Shown one piece after another: positions 54,921 through 64,000 of a stretch of 64,000 nucleotides of DNA; within the stretch, counting starts at the first letter, position 1, and each line of letters begins with the position of its first letter. A model generated the notes under the pieces. The model saw only the letters and a program-made list of their open reading frames with translations, had not been told where the DNA came from and searched no databases. Source of the DNA: an uncultured bacterium. Its GTDB lineage: Bacteria; Calescibacteriota; Calescibacteriia; Calescibacteriales; Calescibacteriaceae. Both the position numbers and the translations under genes were made by a program. Location of the stretch: positions 144,109 through 208,108 of the forward strand of contig CALHPK010000001.1 in assembly GCA_938036315.1 (NCBI GenBank), given 5' to 3'.

Positions 54921-56412
54921 GGATACAAAAGCCGAAACAGATTCCCAGAAATTCACAAAGGGTATAAAATCAGTATCTTTTTTTATATTTTTAAGCAGAA
55001 TCACAGGGCTTTTACGAGAAATCTCCCTGGCTTACTTTATGGGAGCAAGTAAAATCACAGATGCCCTGTTTTTAGGTTGGACCATCCCCAATACCTTAAG
55101 AAGATTTTTTGCAGAGGGATTAGTAGCACCAGCCTTTGTTCCTGCTTTTGTTGAAGCACACAAAAACTCCCAAACGTATCAAGCGGTAAGCTCAATCTCC
55201 GGACAGATTCTACTACTGACAAGTATCATATCGATAGCAATCATTTCTTCATCTTACTTTCTACCGTATATATTAGCTCCCGGATTCGATCAAGAGGGCA
55301 AGAGATTATCCTCATACTTTATTGCGGTTCTATCTCCGTATATAATCTTCATATCACTGGCGACAACCCTGTCCGCTCTCCTCAATTCGTTCAAGATCTT
55401 TGGAATTCCAGAGATGACAATGAGCATCTTTAATCTATCAACAGTCCTTTGCATCTCGGCTTTCGCAATACTTGGGGGAAGACCTGAGATCGGTTTTATA
55501 TCCGGAGTATTCATCGGAGTAATCTTACAGATATTGATACAATTTAACTCGTCAAGAAAATTGACCAAGCTGGGCATTTCCTTTCGTAAAAATAACTACT
55601 CTCAGAAAATCTGGTCAGCCATTCCAGCTGTAGTAACAGGAGGAGCAGTATATCAAATAAACCTATTGGTATCACGAGCCATAGCCAGCATAGGAGGGGA
55701 AAAAGTAGTATCTTATCTCAATTATGCATCTAGGTTTTTCGAACTACCTCTTGGAATTTTTGTGTATTCTATGTCTTATGTATCTTTGCCATTTTTGGCA
55801 GAGGGCGGGAAAAAAAGAGAATTCGGATTTTCTCAAGCAATATTCCTTTCAACTGCCATAACCCTACCAGCAACATTTGGACTCTTCTTTCTTTCCAAAC
55901 CTATAATTTTCGTAATATTCGGATACGGGAAATTTTCCATCTATGATGTAATAGAAACTGCATCGGCGCTTGCGATGTATTCGATTGGTCTTTTGCCCGT
56001 GGCTCTATCACGAGTCCTCACAGTCGATTTTCAAGCTACCGGTAAACTAAAAGTCCCCGTAATATCAAGCATCGTTACATTTGTAATTAATACTCTACTA
56101 TGCCTTATCTTGGTTGGTAAATTTAAACACTCAGGAATTGCTCTGGCATCCTCGATCTCCTCGTTCATCGGTTTTATCCCTCTGGTCGCCTATTCGGACA
56201 AAAAGAGAATTCTTCTGATAAGATTTTTGAAGGGAGCTATATTGTCTCTGCCAGCTTCTCTATTTGCAGTAATATCTGGGATAATCTTCTCAAGATATTA
56301 TTTAGAACTTTATAAAATTTTGAGCTTCGCAATCCTAATTCTTATTGTTTTACTAACTTTTCTTCTACTTTTAATATTCGTAAAGCCCTGGAAAAATCAC
56401 AACAATAGTTAG
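54913..56412 (+). CDS. murJ: Lipid II flippase MurJ (MviN)
   Basis: SRITGLLREISLAYFMGASKITDALFLGWTIPNTLRRFFAEGLVAPAFVP is the hallmark MurJ N-terminus, with 14 TM helices. Confidence 0.85.
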   Translation: MNKDTKAETDSQKFTKGIKSVSFFIFLSRITGLLREISLAYFMGASKITDALFLGWTIPNTLRRFFAEGLVAPAFVPAFVEAHKNSQTYQAVSSISGQILLLTSIISIAIISSSYFLPYILAPGFDQEGKRLSSYFIAVLSPYIIFISLATTLSALLNSFKIFGIPEMTMSIFNLSTVLCISAFAILGGRPEIGFISGVFIGVILQILIQFNSSRKLTKLGISFRKNNYSQKIWSAIPAVVTGGAVYQINLLVSRAIASIGGEKVVSYLNYASRFFELPLGIFVYSMSYVSLPFLAEGGKKREFGFSQAIFLSTAITLPATFGLFFLSKPIIFVIFGYGKFSIYDVIETASALAMYSIGLLPVALSRVLTVDFQATGKLKVPVISSIVTFVINTLLCLILVGKFKHSGIALASSISSFIGFIPLVAYSDKKRILLIRFLKGAILSLPASLFAVISGIIFSRYYLELYKILSFAILILIVLLTFLLLLIFVKPWKNHNNS

Positions 56413-56414
56413 AA

Positions 56415-57686
56415 TCATAACTTCCCAGAATCTGTAGTGTTTTTAAGTTTATCTTTAAGTATCTTCATAGCCAAAAAAGAAGCCAAGATCTTGACATTTT
56501 TTCTTCCTATATTGAATCTGAATTCGTACGACTCTGTTTCATCTTCAAATGATACACCTATGTAGAAAAGTCCTGGAGATTTACCCTCAAGGGGCTCTGG
56601 GCCAGCAACTCCGGTTGTCGAAATCCCTATGTCAGTTCCAAATCTTTCTCTCACACTTTCAGAAAGTTCCTTTGCACACTCATGGGAAACAACTCCAAAA
56701 TTCTCTATGGTCTCCTTTTTCACTCCAAGCTTTATCTTTGCTTCATTTGAATAAACAATCTCACCACCTTTGAAATACTCAGAAGCCCCGGGGACATCTG
56801 TGATAAAATTCATCAACTCCCCACCCGTCAATGATTCCGCAACCGCAAGAGTCATTTTCTTACTCTTCAGGATCTCTCCTAAAACTTCAGAAAGGGTCTT
56901 CCTCTCATCTTCGGCGTATATGTAGTCTTTAAGCCTTTCTTTCACTTTCAGGGCAAAACTATATAGACTCTCCTCTTCCCCAAATAGCTTTATGATAACT
57001 TCTGGGAATCGTGGTAAATATGACACCCTAACCGAAGGCGGAATCCCCATATTTTCTATCTCCCTTTCGACATATGTTTCTGTCACTCCAAATATTTTGA
57101 AAATCCTTTCTCCCTTCTTCTTAACTTCATACAGATCCAGAATTTCTTTATGTACGAATCCATCAAACATAAAAGAGAATTCCGCTGGGACCCCAGGGAG
57201 AAAATAGAAAAGTTTTTTATGTTTTCGCATCTTAAACCCGAATGCAGATCCCACGTGGTTCGGGATAGGCTCTGCACCAACCGGAAATGTCCCCTGCAAC
57301 CTCAGAACATCAGGAAAAACCTCCTTGCCAGTTCTTCTCTTATACCTTTGGAAAATTTCTTCTATTGCTTTTTGATCTTCTTTTAGTGGTACGCCAAAAT
57401 ATTCGCTAGCTACAAATCTGGTCTTATCATCCTTTGTTGAGCCAAGTCCTCCAGAGCAAATTATCACATCTGCAAATCTCTCCGCATTTTCAAGCGCACT
57501 CTTTATCTCAGTTTCATCATCCCCAACAAACTGACAGTAAACCCTATACCCCAGAGGATATAATTTCTGAGCAACATAAATAAAATTTTTATCCTGTGAA
57601 AAACCAGAAACTATTTCCTCTCCCATTACAACCACCGCAACTCTCTTCTCGCCCATATCACTATCGCCCATACTCACTATTTCCAT
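56415..57686 (-). CDS. cinA: CinA-family protein (MoCF-binding domain + CinA C-terminal NMN deamidase domain)
   Basis: RVAVVVMGEEIVSG...GGLGSTKDDKTRF is the MoCF_biosynth-type N-domain. The C-terminal CinA domain reads LAVAESLTGGELMNFITDVPGASEYFKGGEIVYSNEAK. Confidence 0.85.
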   Translation of the reverse strand: MEIVSMGDSDMGEKRVAVVVMGEEIVSGFSQDKNFIYVAQKLYPLGYRVYCQFVGDDETEIKSALENAERFADVIICSGGLGSTKDDKTRFVASEYFGVPLKEDQKAIEEIFQRYKRRTGKEVFPDVLRLQGTFPVGAEPIPNHVGSAFGFKMRKHKKLFYFLPGVPAEFSFMFDGFVHKEILDLYEVKKKGERIFKIFGVTETYVEREIENMGIPPSVRVSYLPRFPEVIIKLFGEEESLYSFALKVKERLKDYIYAEDERKTLSEVLGEILKSKKMTLAVAESLTGGELMNFITDVPGASEYFKGGEIVYSNEAKIKLGVKKETIENFGVVSHECAKELSESVRERFGTDIGISTTGVAGPEPLEGKSPGLFYIGVSFEDETESYEFRFNIGRKNVKILASFLAMKILKDKLKNTTDSGKL

Positions 57687-57692
57687 CTCCTA

Positions 57693-57830
57693 TTATAACT
57701 TCTCCCACTCAAAATTTGTGATATTCCTCCTTTTCTTCGAAAATTCCACCTCCACAAGATATATATATTTTTCTTTGTATTTCTTCCAATACTTTTTCTG
57801 CTTTATCTTCTCCAGTGCTATTACTCTCGC
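57693..57830 (-). pseudogene. Start-less 45-codon remnant of a gene 3' end, paralogous to the partial ORF at 63859-64000
   Basis: On the minus strand it reads ARVIALEKIKQKKYWKKYKEKYIYLVEVEFSKKRRNITNFEWEKL*, immediately preceded by in-frame TAA TGA and with no ATG. Its stop lies 6 nt before the cinA start, so the cinA RBS sits inside it. Confidence 0.4.
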
Positions 57831-58023
57831 TCATTACACAACTTTTCTTCAGTTGTTACCTCCTCCACATTGAAGGTATTAAACCAGAGCTTCTGGATGC
57901 AATTGCTTTTGGTCTTGAAGTCAATTCAGTAAAAAAGCTTCAAGCCTTATGTCAGAGATTTCAAACATTCAAAATGGCGTGTCAAAAAATTCAAGTGAAA
58001 GACTTGTTCAACTTAAGAAATTT

Positions 58024-61000
58024 TTAAAACACTTTTTTCTTTCTCTTTCGCAAAAGCAAGATCAAAGGCAAAGCAGAGATAAAGATAAGGTAGCCAAAAC
58101 CAGAAACTGAACAACCAAATTTTGAAGTAAGTTCTTGATCTTGATCTGAAGTGAATTCAGTTTGATCAGTTTGAGATGTGCCAAAGTACTGCGGAGCTCC
58201 ACCGCCACCGCCTCCACCACTTCCCGACAAAACTCTAACTGGAGTGCTTCTGTGTGTCCAGGTCCCATCTCCTAACTGCCCCCACGCATTCCACCCCCAG
58301 CACCAAAGTGAATTATCTGTCTTTACAGCACAGGTGTGTTCCCCTCCCAAAGAAACTTGTGAAACCCCTTGTGTTATCTGCACCGGGGTGTTTCTGTCTT
58401 GAGTTGTCCCATTCCCTAACTGTCCGAAGTAATTCTCCCCCCAGCACCACAGTGAACCATCTGTCTTTATCGCACAGGTGTGCCACCCTCCCAAAGAAAC
58501 TTGTGAAACCCCCGTTGCCATTATCTGCACTGGAGTGTTCTTGTTTTCATTTGTACCATCTCCTAACTGTCCGCGGTTATTACTCCCCCAGCACCAAAGA
58601 GAACCATCTGTCTTTACAGCACAGGTGTGAAAAGCCCCCAAAGAGACTTGTGAAACCCCCGTTGCCATTATCTGCACAGGAGTGTCCCTATAATATACAC
58701 CTGTCCCGTCTCCTAACTGTCCAGACCGATTATCCCCCCAGCACCAAAGTGAACCATCTGTCTTTACAGCACAGGTGTGCCACCACCCCAATGAAACTTG
58801 TGAAACACCCGTTGCCATTATCTGCACTGGAGTGTACCTGTTTGTCCAAGTCCCATCTCCTAACTGACCGAATTCATTCCACCCCCAGCACCAGAGAGAG
58901 TTATCTGTCTTTATCGCACAGGTGTGCCACCACCCCAATGAAACTTGTGAAACACCCGTTGCCATTATCTGCACTGGGGCGCTACTGGGTGCAGTTGTAC
59001 CATTCCCTAACTGCCCGTATTCATTCCTCCCCCAGCACCAGAGGGAGTTATCTGTCTTTACAGCACAGGTGTGATAACCCCCCGAAGAAATTTGTATAGC
59101 TCCCTCAAAGTATATTGATGAGGTGGTTGCTGATATTATATTTGAGTATGCTGTGTTTCCTGTTGAGTTGAAGGCATATACCCTGAAATAGTAGGTAGTT
59201 TTTTCTTGAAGTGATGTTATATATCCTTCTGTTGTGTTTGCTGAGAAAGTTTGTATTTGTGGATTTGAAAATAAAGAATCAGTTGAGACTTCGACAACAA
59301 ACCCTTGTTCGTTTGGAGAGTTATCCTGCCATCTTAATCCTACTGTATCAGCTGATACGAAGAAATAAGTGAGATTAGAAGGAGCAGAACAGGGCTCAAA
59401 CCCTTCGTCTATCCCTCCTGCGCAGTTATTATCAATTCCATCACATACTTCAGTCTGCCCCGGATTTATCGAAGAGTTTGAATCATCACAATCCCCAGGA
59501 GATAAAACAGCATATGTAGAGTTATCAGGATATGGATCAGTACAGGATACTTGAGAGCCCCCCACAGGATAATATCCATCAAAATCTGCATCCTTGTACC
59601 AAATAGTCCCAGGATTCAGATTAGCATTATTGTCATCACAATCTTCAGGAGATAAAACAGCATATGTAGAGTTCTCAGGATATGGATCAGTGCAGGATAC
59701 TTGAGAGCCCCCCTCAGGATAATATCCATCAAAATCTGCATCCTTGTACCAGATAGTCTCAGGATTCAGATTAGCATTATTGTCATCACAATCCCCAGGA
59801 GATAAAACAGCATATGTAGAGTTCTCAGGATATGGATCAGTGCAGGATACTTGAGAGCCCCCCACAGGATAATATCCATCAAAATCTGCATCCTTGTACC
59901 AGATAGTTCCCGGGTTTACATCCGGATTAAGGTCATCGCAATCTTCTGGCTTTGAAACAGATGTAAATCCTGCTGGCATAGTATTGGCACAGGTAGAAAC
60001 TGATGTCGTCCAAGTATCGGAATCTCGATCTTCCCAAAACCAAGTCTCTATATGCCCTGAGCAATCATTATCTTTCCCATTGTTGCAGTTCAGAGGAGCT
60101 CCAGGGTATATACTTGCTACACTATCGTCGCAATCCAAAAGTGTTATTGTTGTAAGGTTATATGGTGATGTTGGTCCACAAGCCACTTGCACCGCACCAT
60201 CTGTGTAACCATCAGAATCCGCATCTTTGTAGAATACCAATAATACCCCTTCATCTATTTCTCCATCGCAGTCGTTATCTATTCCATCACAAATTTCTGT
60301 TGCTCCCGGTTTTATGTTTGGATTGTTATCGTTACAATCACCAACCATTGCATACAAGACATATCCTTGTGGTTGCAAGCAGGATATCCGCGTTGTCCCA
60401 TCTGTGTAGCCATCAGAATCGCTGTCTTTGAACCATACTGTATTTGGATTTATCTCCGCTCTCTCATCATCACAATCTTGTGAATTTGAAACATAACCCT
60501 GTGGTTGCGTGCAAGCTTCTGTCACTGAACCAGGATTACCATAACCATCTGAATCTTTATCTTGATAAAACGTTAACTTCACACCTTCATCTATTTCTCC
60601 ATCGCAGTCATTATCTATTCCATCACAAACTTCTTCCTTTGGCACACACACTATCTCACCTTCCTTGTTTTCCTTCTTTATCTCTACCTTCTTCTCAAAA
60701 ACTGTCTCGGCTCCTTCGCTGTCTCTTACCACTACTCTTAATACATATTCCCCACCATCTGCAGTCTGAGGAACCTTTACAACCGCTGTCGCTCCATAAG
60801 GTGTTATCCAATCAAATTTCACTCCATCTTTCGTTATCTCCCAAGCAAACGTAACATCGTCTCCGTCCGGTTCATTCACTACCGCAGATGCTACAAATTC
60901 TCTCCCTATCCATATACCCCCTGTTGTACCTATCTTTATAACCCGTGGTGCTCTGTTCTCTTTCTTTACTTCAATCGTGGTTGAGACTGTGTCTTTGTTC

Positions 61001-63690
61001 CCTCCCGAATCCTGAGCTTGGAGCACCAAAAGCGCCGTCTTCGCACCTTGCGGAACTTGTATCTCAAACTCTTTCTCCGCTTTCCCTCTTTCCAAAATTA
61101 TAGAACCTGAATCAGAATATCCCCAATCCGTTACTGAAAGACTGTAATTTAAAAAACTTGAATCATCTGAAAACTCAACCTTTAATTTTGCTCTCCCCCC
61201 CGCTTTTGCTTGTCCTTTCTGGATTATCTTTATCAAGGGTGAGGCATCTTCTATTTCCAAAGTTATGTCAACCGAAGCAGTTGAACCTTTCTCCTTTGTC
61301 TGTATCTCTCTTTCTACTCTAACACCCTTGTAACTTGCATAAATTTTTACTTTTGTGTTAGGTGGTGCCTCGAGTTTGAACTGCCCCCCTGAATTTGTGT
61401 AGTCAACCTCTCCAAACTCCGTTTCTACCCTCACCCCTGGTATGTGATTCCCTCTTTTTGATTGAATAGTCCCTTGAACCCATGCAGGGCGAGTATCTAT
61501 CTCCTGCTCTGACCATACACACTCCGTCCCCTTTGCCTCGTATTCCTTCTCGTAAATCTCTTGCGTTGTAGATGTTTGGTATATAAACTTTACTTTGTAT
61601 CTGTATCTCCCTTCTTCTGATTTCTTCGCCCTTCCTCCTCGAACCTTAAAAAATCCATCTTCATCCGTAAAAACTGGAGACCTATCTCCAACTATGACTG
61701 ATACTCCCCTCAATCCTTTCCCTTCTTTATCTCTCACTTGCCCTTCTGCACATACCTCAACATATTCAAAGTTTGCACCCTGACAGGAAACTTGACTGTC
61801 CTCTGGCTTTACCCTGACAACTTCTGTTCTCCCCTCTGTTGAGCCATCCGGAAACTTTGCTATGTATGTGATTTTCACGTCCTCTGTTTGTGTAGGTCTT
61901 GGTATAAAAACTTCAAAATCCCCTGAAGATTTTGTTTTTGTGTTGTTCCCTCCAACGAAAACTTCTACCCCCTCTGCAGGTTGTGAATTTACAAACACCT
62001 TACATCCAACTTTCAAAGGAGAGAGATTTATTGAAAATTGACAGGTTTCAGCTGTTATATCTTTGTCAACATTTAAAGTTTTTTGTGCTTTGTAAGTTCT
62101 CCCGTCTTTTTCGGTAGAAATCGTAATAGTAATGTTTCCACCCCTTGAGATTAAACTGAAATTTCCAGATGAGTCAGTTTTTGTTGCCTTCCCTTCTGAT
62201 GATACAACATTTGCGTTCTGTATAGGATTACCTTCCTCATCCTTCACAAAGCATGAAACTGAAAACATTGAAGGCGGTGACAGAGTTGGACCTTCATAAC
62301 AACCTTCTTTCTTATCTCCAACTGAAAATTCCTTTACCCCTGAAATCTCTCCGTAGGTGCCATATATCCTTCCATTCCAAGCATAAATCCTGTCTGTCGC
62401 AAAAATCCTTATATTAGAATTAGAAGGAACATATAAGATATACTCGCCATTTTCGTCAGAAATTGTGTATGTTGACCTATATCCTGAGCATATCCATTGA
62501 CCTACAATCTCACCGTATCTTCTCAACTCCGAAGCCGTTACATAAACTCCACTCACTGGTTTCCCATCCGCTCCTATTACCTTACCTTTTACACATACAT
62601 TCCTTGGCAATGTTGGACACCCAAAACTCCACCAAGATGTGTGAGTTAGACTCATCTCCCCGTATGCGACCTCATCTAAAATTCCGTCCCCGTCCGTGTC
62701 TTCTTTGAATATCACAACCTTTGCTTCTTTATGCCTTTTCCATATTCCATCCTCAGCATCATATGAATACAAAGGGATAGAATTTGCTCCCCTTTTGTAT
62801 GCCTCTAAAGCGTCTTTTTGTAAACTTTCTGGCAATCTCCGCATCACCATTACTGGATTTTCTGGAGATGCCACCTGCACATCTTTGCCACCCTGCTTAA
62901 AACTTAAAGAAGTCCATCCAAGTGCTTTAAGTTCAACTTCTTCAATTCCTGAAATCCCTAAGATCCCCTTTGCCTCTTCATCTTGTGCTTTAAAATCCCC
63001 TGGAAAGCTATTTAAATTTCTGTCAGGGTCTCCAACTGTTATTTCTACTGTGATTTCTCCTTCCTGCTGTTTTGTAAAGAAAGATTTTATCTCGTCCAAC
63101 ACAGAAGAAGGTGATGCTCTTCCTGTTACTATTCTTCCTGTTACTAATCTTCCTGTTACAAAGGCTTCTCCCGAATCTGTTCTCATTGTTTCTGTTCCAT
63201 CAGGGTTTTGAGTATATCTACCTGTTACTAATCTTCCTGTTACGAATCTTCCCGTTACAAAGTCTGCTTGAATATCCACATTTATTGCCCTGCCTGTTAT
63301 AATTCTACCTGTTATAATTCTACCTGTTATAATTCTACCTGTTATAAGTCTGCCTGTTACAAAATCAGAGCGTATTACTTTATGAGAAGGAGCAAAACCT
63401 TCTTGTTCGACAGTGATTTTTATATCTTTTCCTTCTTGGATTGGGACTTCTGCTGAAAATACCCCGAACTCATCTGTTTTGGTTTCTTGAACTTTGCCAG
63501 CAGATTCAATTTTTACATTTGCCGAGATCAGGGGCTTTCCTTCTATGGAGTCCTTTACTGTTCCTGAAACAATTATGGATGTAAGTTCCTTTTCCTCTGC
63601 TTCATTTTTTACTTTACATAAAGAAGCACAAGACGAAAGGAAGACAAAGACGAAAAAATAAAGAATCAATAAACGTAGAATATTATTCAT
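58024..63690 (-). CDS. Giant (1888 aa) mosaic cell-surface lipoprotein: CarboxypepD_reg-like domains, (I/V)TGR pentapeptide repeats, Ig/PKD-like domains, MopE/Myxococcus-type Cys-rich repeats, FN3, 6-blade RCC1 propeller, poly-Gly linker, Cys-containing C-terminal sorting signal
   Basis: A single uninterrupted ORF with signal peptide and lipobox (FLSSC). Recognisable repeat signatures are CDGIDNDCDGEIDEG (x3), YKDADFDGYYPVGGSQVSCTDPYPENSTYAVLSPGDCDD (x3), HTCAVKTDNSLWCWG.N..GQLG.GT (x6) and an FN3 block (LRWQDN...YYFRVYAFNSTG). The C-terminus reads SGSGGGGGGGAPQYFG...FGCSVSGFG + hydrophobic helix + RKRKKKVF. Confidence 0.85.
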   Translation of the reverse strand: MNNILRLLILYFFVFVFLSSCASLCKVKNEAEEKELTSIIVSGTVKDSIEGKPLISANVKIESAGKVQETKTDEFGVFSAEVPIQEGKDIKITVEQEGFAPSHKVIRSDFVTGRLITGRIITGRIITGRIITGRAINVDIQADFVTGRFVTGRLVTGRYTQNPDGTETMRTDSGEAFVTGRLVTGRIVTGRASPSSVLDEIKSFFTKQQEGEITVEITVGDPDRNLNSFPGDFKAQDEEAKGILGISGIEEVELKALGWTSLSFKQGGKDVQVASPENPVMVMRRLPESLQKDALEAYKRGANSIPLYSYDAEDGIWKRHKEAKVVIFKEDTDGDGILDEVAYGEMSLTHTSWWSFGCPTLPRNVCVKGKVIGADGKPVSGVYVTASELRRYGEIVGQWICSGYRSTYTISDENGEYILYVPSNSNIRIFATDRIYAWNGRIYGTYGEISGVKEFSVGDKKEGCYEGPTLSPPSMFSVSCFVKDEEGNPIQNANVVSSEGKATKTDSSGNFSLISRGGNITITISTEKDGRTYKAQKTLNVDKDITAETCQFSINLSPLKVGCKVFVNSQPAEGVEVFVGGNNTKTKSSGDFEVFIPRPTQTEDVKITYIAKFPDGSTEGRTEVVRVKPEDSQVSCQGANFEYVEVCAEGQVRDKEGKGLRGVSVIVGDRSPVFTDEDGFFKVRGGRAKKSEEGRYRYKVKFIYQTSTTQEIYEKEYEAKGTECVWSEQEIDTRPAWVQGTIQSKRGNHIPGVRVETEFGEVDYTNSGGQFKLEAPPNTKVKIYASYKGVRVEREIQTKEKGSTASVDITLEIEDASPLIKIIQKGQAKAGGRAKLKVEFSDDSSFLNYSLSVTDWGYSDSGSIILERGKAEKEFEIQVPQGAKTALLVLQAQDSGGNKDTVSTTIEVKKENRAPRVIKIGTTGGIWIGREFVASAVVNEPDGDDVTFAWEITKDGVKFDWITPYGATAVVKVPQTADGGEYVLRVVVRDSEGAETVFEKKVEIKKENKEGEIVCVPKEEVCDGIDNDCDGEIDEGVKLTFYQDKDSDGYGNPGSVTEACTQPQGYVSNSQDCDDERAEINPNTVWFKDSDSDGYTDGTTRISCLQPQGYVLYAMVGDCNDNNPNIKPGATEICDGIDNDCDGEIDEGVLLVFYKDADSDGYTDGAVQVACGPTSPYNLTTITLLDCDDSVASIYPGAPLNCNNGKDNDCSGHIETWFWEDRDSDTWTTSVSTCANTMPAGFTSVSKPEDCDDLNPDVNPGTIWYKDADFDGYYPVGGSQVSCTDPYPENSTYAVLSPGDCDDNNANLNPETIWYKDADFDGYYPEGGSQVSCTDPYPENSTYAVLSPEDCDDNNANLNPGTIWYKDADFDGYYPVGGSQVSCTDPYPDNSTYAVLSPGDCDDSNSSINPGQTEVCDGIDNNCAGGIDEGFEPCSAPSNLTYFFVSADTVGLRWQDNSPNEQGFVVEVSTDSLFSNPQIQTFSANTTEGYITSLQEKTTYYFRVYAFNSTGNTAYSNIISATTSSIYFEGAIQISSGGYHTCAVKTDNSLWCWGRNEYGQLGNGTTAPSSAPVQIMATGVSQVSLGWWHTCAIKTDNSLWCWGWNEFGQLGDGTWTNRYTPVQIMATGVSQVSLGWWHTCAVKTDGSLWCWGDNRSGQLGDGTGVYYRDTPVQIMATGVSQVSLGAFHTCAVKTDGSLWCWGSNNRGQLGDGTNENKNTPVQIMATGVSQVSLGGWHTCAIKTDGSLWCWGENYFGQLGNGTTQDRNTPVQITQGVSQVSLGGEHTCAVKTDNSLWCWGWNAWGQLGDGTWTHRSTPVRVLSGSGGGGGGGAPQYFGTSQTDQTEFTSDQDQELTSKFGCSVSGFGYLIFISALPLILLLRKRKKKVF
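58260..59208 (-). repeat. Six tandem ~156-bp RCC1-blade coding repeats with high DNA-level identity
   Basis: Repeated TPVQIMATGVSQVSLG.WHTCA.KTD.SLWCWG.N..GQLGDGT blocks. The antisense ORF 58254-59099 is an artefact of this periodicity. Confidence 0.8.
59484..59935 (-). repeat. Three tandem 150-bp near-identical coding repeats (50-aa Cys/Asp-rich modules)
   Basis: Units start at 59485, 59635 and 59785 and differ by only a few nt. Each encodes WYKDADFDGYYP.GGSQVSCTDPYP.NSTYAVLSP.DCDD.N. Confidence 0.85.
63118..63360 (-). repeat. Coding tandem pentapeptide repeat (I/L/V)(I/V)TGR, including 15-bp perfect DNA tandem cctgttataattcta x3-4
   Basis: Protein reads FVTGRLITGRIITGRIITGRIITGRAI ... FVTGRFVTGRLVTGRY ... 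FVTGRLVTGRIVTGR. The DNA at 63293-63352 is a perfect 15-mer tandem. Confidence 0.8.
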
Positions 63691-63858
63691 AAGTATTTAT
63701 TATTATAATACTATTTTTTGAAAAGTAGCAAGGAGATTTAAAATTTTTGTGTTGAGGAATTTTTACTGATCAGCATCAGAGTGTGACAGATTTTACGTTT
63801 TCTATTGCTTATTGCTGATATATGTTTATTGTTTGTTATAACTTTTCCTATTCTGTTG

Positions 63859-64000
63859 CTATAACTTTTCCCATTCAAAATTTGTAATGTTTCTTTTTTC
63901 CTTTGAAAACTCAATCCCTATCAGGTAAATATTTTCGTATCTCCCTTTATATTTCTCCCAGTATCTCTTCTGCTTTATCTGTTCCAAAGCTCTTCCTTCC
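63859..64000 (-). CDS. C-terminal 46 codons of an unknown gene whose 5' part lies beyond the window edge
   Basis: Minus-strand frame reads ...EGRALEQIKQKRYWEKYKGRYENIYLIGIEFSKEKRNITNFEWEKL* and stays open to the window edge. About 75% nt identity to 57693-57830 with a frame-preserving 6-nt indel. Confidence 0.4.
   Translation of the reverse strand, partial: EGRALEQIKQKRYWEKYKGRYENIYLIGIEFSKEKRNITNFEWEKL

Follow-up and report, generated by a model that had tools for sequence, protein, structure and literature searches.

Two segments of about 140 bp, similar in sequence and lying in the same orientation, flank a gene for a protein of 1888 residues (hereafter the giant gene) in the 64-kb window, i.e., the whole stretch of 64,000 nt that was analysed. 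The upstream segment closes an open reading frame that runs up to the window edge (gene X), and the downstream segment lies between the giant gene and cinA. The arrangement raises the question of how such a pair arose. A preliminary description offered two readings: either the giant gene, with or without further sequence, inserted at an ancestral junction of gene X and cinA and thereby duplicated the 3′ end of gene X, or a paralogue of gene X decayed in place. Under both, the giant gene was regarded as a discrete cassette. The positions of the features discussed below are collected in Table 1.

Table 1. Features of the giant-gene locus, given as positions in the window.
Feature	Position	Strand	Basis or remark
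cinA (MoCF_biosynth and CinA domains)	56415..57686	-	Pfam; directly downstream of the relic
Downstream relic, 43 family-homologous codons and stop	57693..57830	-	Last third of PDDEXK_9, no start codon
Spacer between giant-gene stop and relic, 193 nt	57831..58023	-	No DUF1703 homology in any frame
Giant gene, 1888 aa	58024..63690	-	ORF list; CarboxypepD_reg, MopE-like, fn3 and RCC1 propeller domains (Pfam)
Intergenic region between gene X and giant gene, 168 nt	63691..63858	-	One promoter-like site
Last 21 nt of gene X, microduplicated in tandem (GAATGGGAAAAGTTATAGCAA / GAATAGGAAAAGTTATAACAA)	63833..63876	-	Repeat search, 90% identity, spacing 23 nt
Gene X 3′ end, 46 codons and stop TAG	63859..64000	-	Predicted sister DUF1703 paralogue, open to the window edge

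To begin with the similarity itself, blastn within the 64-kb window aligned the two copies with 71.7% DNA identity over 138 columns (E = 3e-16), and tblastn aligned their peptides with 72% identity over 43 residues (E = 4e-19); the two ungapped blocks are 75% identical. The earlier estimate of about 75% thus holds, at 72–75% for DNA and 72% for protein, and the alignment of both copies confirmed that they are distinguished by a single 6-nt (two-codon) indel that preserves the frame. No third copy was detected in the 64-kb window, where the next best blastn and tblastn matches have E values of at least 0.01. Past both stop codons, a stretch of about 25 nt is roughly 48% identical without gaps; it is purine-rich, and the similarity was judged not significant.

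On the minus strand, the downstream copy translates from 57830 to 57693 as ARVIALEKIKQKKYWKKYKEKYIYLVEVEFSKKRRNITNFEWEKL and ends at a TAA (57695–57693). Its translation agrees with the preliminary description in having no start codon and in being cut off by in-frame TAA TGA, located at 57836–57831. The upstream copy (minus strand, 63999–63859) encodes EGRALEQIKQKRYWEKYKGRYENIYLIGIEFSKEKRNITNFEWEKL and ends at a TAG (63861–63859); its reading frame stays open up to base 64000, the window edge, and it looks intact as far as it is visible within the window. The copies had been placed just beside the giant gene. They do lie on its flanks, but neither adjoins its ORF: 193 nt (57831–58023) separate the giant-gene stop from the downstream copy, and 168 nt (63691–63858) separate the stop of the upstream copy from the giant-gene ATG.

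The peptide encoded by both copies corresponds to the last ~40 residues of PDDEXK_9, the C-terminal nuclease domain of DUF1703. Against the Pfam model PF08011, the upstream copy scored 31.7 bits (positions 67–103 of 105), above the gathering cut-off of 25.5 bits, and the downstream copy scored 15.8 bits (positions 68–103 of 105), below it. With a subfamily HMM, the upstream copy reached 81.8 bits and the downstream copy 60.8 bits (E = 9e-20). A profile search of 1.84 billion representative proteins returned 1606 relatives of the peptide; the full-length relatives examined are 501–539 aa long and consist of AAA-ATPase_like (PF09820) followed by PDDEXK_9. Judged by these matches, gene X and the downstream relic are predicted to be members or derivatives of the multi-copy DUF1703 family (AAA-ATPase_like plus PDDEXK_9). 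PADLOC defence models gave no match to the family, and its assignment to a defence system was rejected.

DUF1703 is included in surveys of the PD-(D/E)XK nucleases (PMC1913061, PMC3424549) and has been described as a family of lineage-specific, divergent and recombining paralogues of unknown function, with partial copies at scaffold borders; its paralogue expansion has been reported in Cardinium cCpun (PMC6387759). The locus resembles this picture in that the two segments align with the last third of PDDEXK_9, and in that a sister pair with one decayed member, together with many fragmentary database matches, fits the known expansion, recombination and partial copies. It differs in its host, a thermophile lineage related to Ca. 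Calescibacterium and not a symbiont. Furthermore, the window shows no more than the last ~45 codons, the remainder of gene X lies outside it, and the relic has neither the catalytic D...(D/E)xK core nor the ATPase domain. Among the best 150 representatives of the family, 121 are shorter than 150 aa, consistent with a family whose copies decay and interrupt assemblies. Gene callers derive many 65–73-aa 'proteins' from DUF1703 fragments because of a conserved Met in the GRxDM motif.

The downstream copy matches only positions 86–138 of the 142-position subfamily HMM. Positions 1–85 (GRiDl..., yiFEFKv and the catalytic core) found no match in any frame of 57600–58300, the PD-(D/E)XK catalytic core (GRxD ... 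ExK) is missing from the relic in all frames, and six relatives that carry the ATPase domain (four of full length and two partial), used as tblastn queries, recovered no trace of that domain and nothing else of the family in the window. A frameshifted continuation upstream of the relic's stops was considered and dismissed, as the repaired translation scored no better in Pfam and the six-frame HMM search was empty. At two columns, each 97% conserved in the family, the relic changes Q to K and G to E, and it carries in addition the two-codon deletion; the upstream copy retains all 11 of the columns conserved at ≥90%. The downstream copy is a clean truncation. It can be classed as an ordinary pseudogene relic, derived from a known multi-copy family of which it is a fragment and not a functional member. 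It shares with ordinary pseudogene relics the missing start codon, the upstream in-frame stops, the loss of conserved residues, a between-strain divergence that is neutral, and a location immediately next to the following gene. Nothing notable sets it apart from them, since an open frame of 43 codons is expected for a short, recent stump. The second reading of the preliminary description, decay of a gene-X paralogue, is therefore supported by the DUF1703 identity and by the truncated, degenerating state of this 3′ end.

The relationship of the two copies was assessed against 154 C-termini of the family. Among these and the upstream copy, the closest relative of the downstream copy is the upstream copy (72%, with the next at 65% or less), while the upstream copy is about equally close to foreign homologues, e.g., P0001 at 74%. 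The residue pair Q10 and W14 occurs in both copies and in 0 of the 154 homologues. These comparisons identify the two copies as sister paralogues, with the downstream branch being the longer.

Their divergence carries the mark of selection on protein. Over the 42 aligned codons, differences between the copies are distributed 9/3/21 by codon position, and pN is 0.126; at 16 of 28 conserved, degenerate residues a different codon is used, which places synonymous sites at or near saturation. Uniform neutral divergence is rejected (p = 5e-4), and a downstream fragment that never coded is disfavoured (binomial test, p = 0.004–0.02), both tests having modest power since they rest on 42 codons. The near-saturation of synonymous sites with a conserved peptide implies that both copies belonged to working genes while most of their divergence took place. 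The suggestion that both had once been under coding constraint is borne out accordingly by the codon-position pattern and the conserved peptide.

Divergence accumulated mostly while both copies were coding contradicts a duplication of the gene end generated by insertion, whereby the giant gene with flanking DNA would have entered the gene X–cinA junction and duplicated the last ~140 bp. We regard such an origin as very improbable. The copies are indeed direct repeats flanking the giant gene and each other's closest relatives, and the G+C content of the giant gene (0.40–0.48) is somewhat higher than that of its neighbours (0.33–0.41). A fragment produced by insertion would nevertheless have been non-coding from its origin, whereas the 9/3/21 distribution and near-saturated synonymous sites record long selection at the protein level in both lineages, and the higher G+C content falls mainly on the Gly-rich RCC1 part, where it may stem from protein composition and not from a foreign origin. 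In addition, 168 and 193 nt of unrelated DNA intervene between the copies and the giant ORF, and no transposase, integrase or terminal-repeat signature was found in 56000–64000. No terminal inverted repeats were found around the giant gene, and the interval between the copies holds only the giant ORF, with its Pfam surface-protein modules. Size is a further difficulty, as target duplications made by known transposition mechanisms measure a few to ~15 bp, not 140 bp.

With target-site duplications and the direct repeats of genomic islands, the locus shares the presence of same-orientation repeats on both sides of a large gene. Unlike island repeats, those of the window are 140 bp long, old, diverged under coding selection and separated from the gene by spacers, and they are accompanied by no integrase, transposase or tRNA attachment site; the two tRNA genes of the window are located far off, at 25.5 kb and 40.4 kb. 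The first reading of the preliminary description, an insertion that duplicated the 3′ end of gene X, is thus disfavoured by the codon-position pattern and by the unrelated spacers.

A close relative of the window allowed the recent history of the relic to be followed. The 90% cluster of cinA contains a second member (P0189, assembly ERZ6863514), encoded on a contig (L011) that matches 12 kb of the window at 98.6% identity and ends inside the giant gene. The relic, the spacer and the giant-gene 3′ end recur in this sister strain, and since the layout is common to both, the truncation predates the split of the strains. Across nine genes, the strains show a pS of 1.84% and a pN of 0.19%. In the relic, 3 of 138 sites differ, with 2.55 expected at the synonymous rate (a comparison of low power), and the spacer shows 9 mismatches in 193 sites plus 3 gap columns, above the synonymous rate. 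The relic now appears to drift about neutrally.

Between the strains, the giant gene has diverged by ~13% over its last 420 nt, the spacer by 4.7%, the relic by 2.2% and cinA by 0.9%. These values would suit a role of the DUF1703 ends as past or present homology arms for the exchange of a strain-variable surface-protein cassette, which is nonetheless very improbable. The copies are only 72–75% identical and have no long identical runs, and sequences this diverged are unsuited to RecA-type recombination with each other. In its divergent 3′ part, the giant gene is made up of tandem RCC1 repeats that coincide with the end of the sister contig, a setting in which misassembly or repeat shuffling is likely, and the comparison involves one sister strain only. 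The apparent gradient from the giant gene towards cinA was set aside as not robust on account of these repeats at the contig end.

At larger distances, the nearest species-representative genomes, those of Ca. Calescibacterium and an uncultured bacterium (cinA 59% identical in each), have neither the giant gene nor a DUF1703 gene near cinA. The loci of the cinA relatives at ~56–59% identity (L001, L002 and L013, the last at 56%) and that of a giant-gene homologue at 48% (L012) show no synteny and no DUF1703 or partner gene nearby. Scans of genome and metagenome contigs gave only distant cinA relatives and one 33-nt relic, and they yielded no intermediately related genome in which synteny is conserved. 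In the comparison for an empty site, the position is filled in L011, and L001, L002, L013 and L012 are without synteny.

That the giant gene forms a discrete cassette does not follow from either reading: the element that disperses and decays is the DUF1703 family, and the comparison yielded neither an empty site nor a mobility gene. The location of the giant gene between the copies is probably a coincidence, or a trace of two paralogues that once stood in tandem or close together, and not an insertion footprint. An attractive but unsupported reading of the giant gene as a bracketed cassette is thereby corrected.

DUF1703 ends were also encountered in other assemblies. On contig L008 (JACCEB011174978.1), a 33-nt intergenic stump (615–649, …ACAAATTTTGAGTGGGAGAAGTTATAG) is 97% identical to the downstream relic and directly follows the stop of an unrelated gene, the contig being otherwise unlike the window. 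Contig L014 has a DUF1703 3′ relic of ~75 codons (135–358), in front of which stand a stop and non-coding, AT-rich sequence. A frameshifted copy occupies the start of contig L010 (1–344), and the copy on contig L009 is cut by the contig end. The DUF1703 ends on L008, L009, L010 and L014 adjoin unrelated genes and sit beside housekeeping genes; L010 and L014 come from hot-spring or vent metagenomes. As the query was the C-terminal peptide, the recovery of 3′ pieces only is expected and has no mechanistic meaning.

Taking these comparisons together, we consider it highly probable that the pair results from duplication of a paralogue, long divergence of both copies as working genes, and subsequent truncation and neutral drift of the copy on the cinA side. 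Two DUF1703 paralogues would have arisen by duplication within the present lineage, and both would then have kept working through a long period of divergence. Before the split from the sister strain, the cinA-side copy would have lost everything 5′ of about its last 43 codons, through a deletion or a replacement whose cause is not recoverable, and the stump would have drifted neutrally since. The family identity, the sister relation, the divergence under selection, the clean truncation and the recent neutral drift come from the comparisons above; the lost part was presumably a full-length gene, and the stump would persist because it is short, recent, and set against the ribosome-binding site and a possible promoter of cinA. 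The locus thus adds a small data point on the turnover of DUF1703 paralogues in this Calescibacterium-related thermophile lineage.

The 5′ part of the relic could have been removed when the giant gene arrived. In a more elaborate version, which we hold to be improbable, the giant gene or its block displaced most of a DUF1703 paralogue in one replacement. DUF1703 genes in thermophiles would be turnover hot spots that take up DNA, their 3′ stumps being kept for the expression signals of downstream genes, and the relics on L008 and L014 and the 21-nt microduplication at the end of gene X would be traces of this process.

On its other side, the relic borders the start of cinA. The first in-frame ATG of cinA (57686, giving the longest ORF) indeed lies 6 nt past the relic stop, as had been described. 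The ribosome-binding site, earlier placed inside the relic, is instead found after its stop: a Shine–Dalgarno AGGAG occupies 57691–57687, 9–15 nt before the likely cinA starts. The database version of cinA (P0155, 418 aa, 100% identical) starts at ATG 57671, and cinA homologues align from residue 15 only. The spacing of AGGAG fits starts at 57677 or 57671 better than one at 57686, and the true start is likely ATG 57671 or GTG 57677. For annotation purposes, the cinA start can be placed at 57671 or 57677, and the stump at 57693–57830 can be marked as a DUF1703 pseudogene fragment.

The same proximity suggests that the relic might be kept by selection for expression signals of cinA, namely its ribosome-binding site and possibly a promoter, and so represent an exapted gene end. 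This is compatible with decay and bears only on why the stump persists; we think it rather unlikely, with some indications in its favour. AGGAG follows the relic stop immediately, and a TTGGAA-16-TATATA arrangement can be seen by eye inside the relic, in which a strict promoter scan reported no site. DUF1703 genes elsewhere end 2–18 nt before the next start (L009, L010), so that the signals of downstream genes commonly overlap a DUF1703 gene end; the fact that only 3′ relics were found is, however, an ascertainment effect of the C-terminal query. Also in favour, the terminator scan gave 0 sites in the spacer and none in the whole interval between the giant gene and cinA. The divergence of the relic from the sister strain equals the neutral expectation, at low power.

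ORFs of the spacer itself had no Pfam or NCBIfam match. A 70-aa plus-strand ORF at 57815–58027 was considered as a gene and is probably spurious, as it likewise lacks a Pfam or NCBIfam match and indels in the sister strain break its frame.

Returning to decay of a paralogue as the preferred explanation, the state of the surviving partner is also of interest. No protein with the gene X C-terminus occurs in a database of 5.8 billion proteins, and the exact 46-aa and 42-aa peptides are absent from the protein collection. Both cinA (P0155) and the giant protein (P0190), which the contig also encodes, are in this database. With these contig neighbours listed there and its own C-terminus not, gene X may be broken, i.e., may itself be a pseudogene, or may sit at a contig edge. 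Its 21-nt microduplication straddles and follows the stop codon; it could have arisen by slippage, or could be what is left of the end of another copy. Within the intergenic region that follows, the promoter scan reported TTGCTA-18-TATAAT at 63731..63702. Apart from the gene X 3′ end, no homology to the family was found in any frame of 63600–64000.

The product of the giant gene is, by its domains and signals, a predicted lipoprotein-type surface protein. An identical protein is present in the database (P0190); the homologue closest to it is P0191, with 48% identity across 66% of the query. Its C-terminus (58024–58110, ...SGFGYLIFISALPLILLLRKRKKKVF) resembles an exosortase/archaeosortase-type CTERM sorting signal, for which the only match is the sub-threshold NCBIfam Heimdall-CTERM (18 bits against a cut-off of 24). 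Internal tandem repeats are located at 58238–59124 and 59483–59960; the gene contains six units of ~147 nt with 73–83% identity in the Pfam RCC1 region, and three units of 150 nt with 89–95% identity to which no domain was assigned here. It is within the ~147-nt units that the sister contig stops, and its final ~420 nt of giant-gene sequence are ~13% different, as against ~1% in flanking genes, which reflects either repeat shuffling or an assembly artefact. Near the other end of the gene, runs of a 15-nt unit (63103–63370) encode a pentapeptide repeat xVTGR(I/L) (FVTGRLITGRIITGRIITGRIITGR...), and these runs follow a lipoprotein-type signal peptide ending in LSSC.
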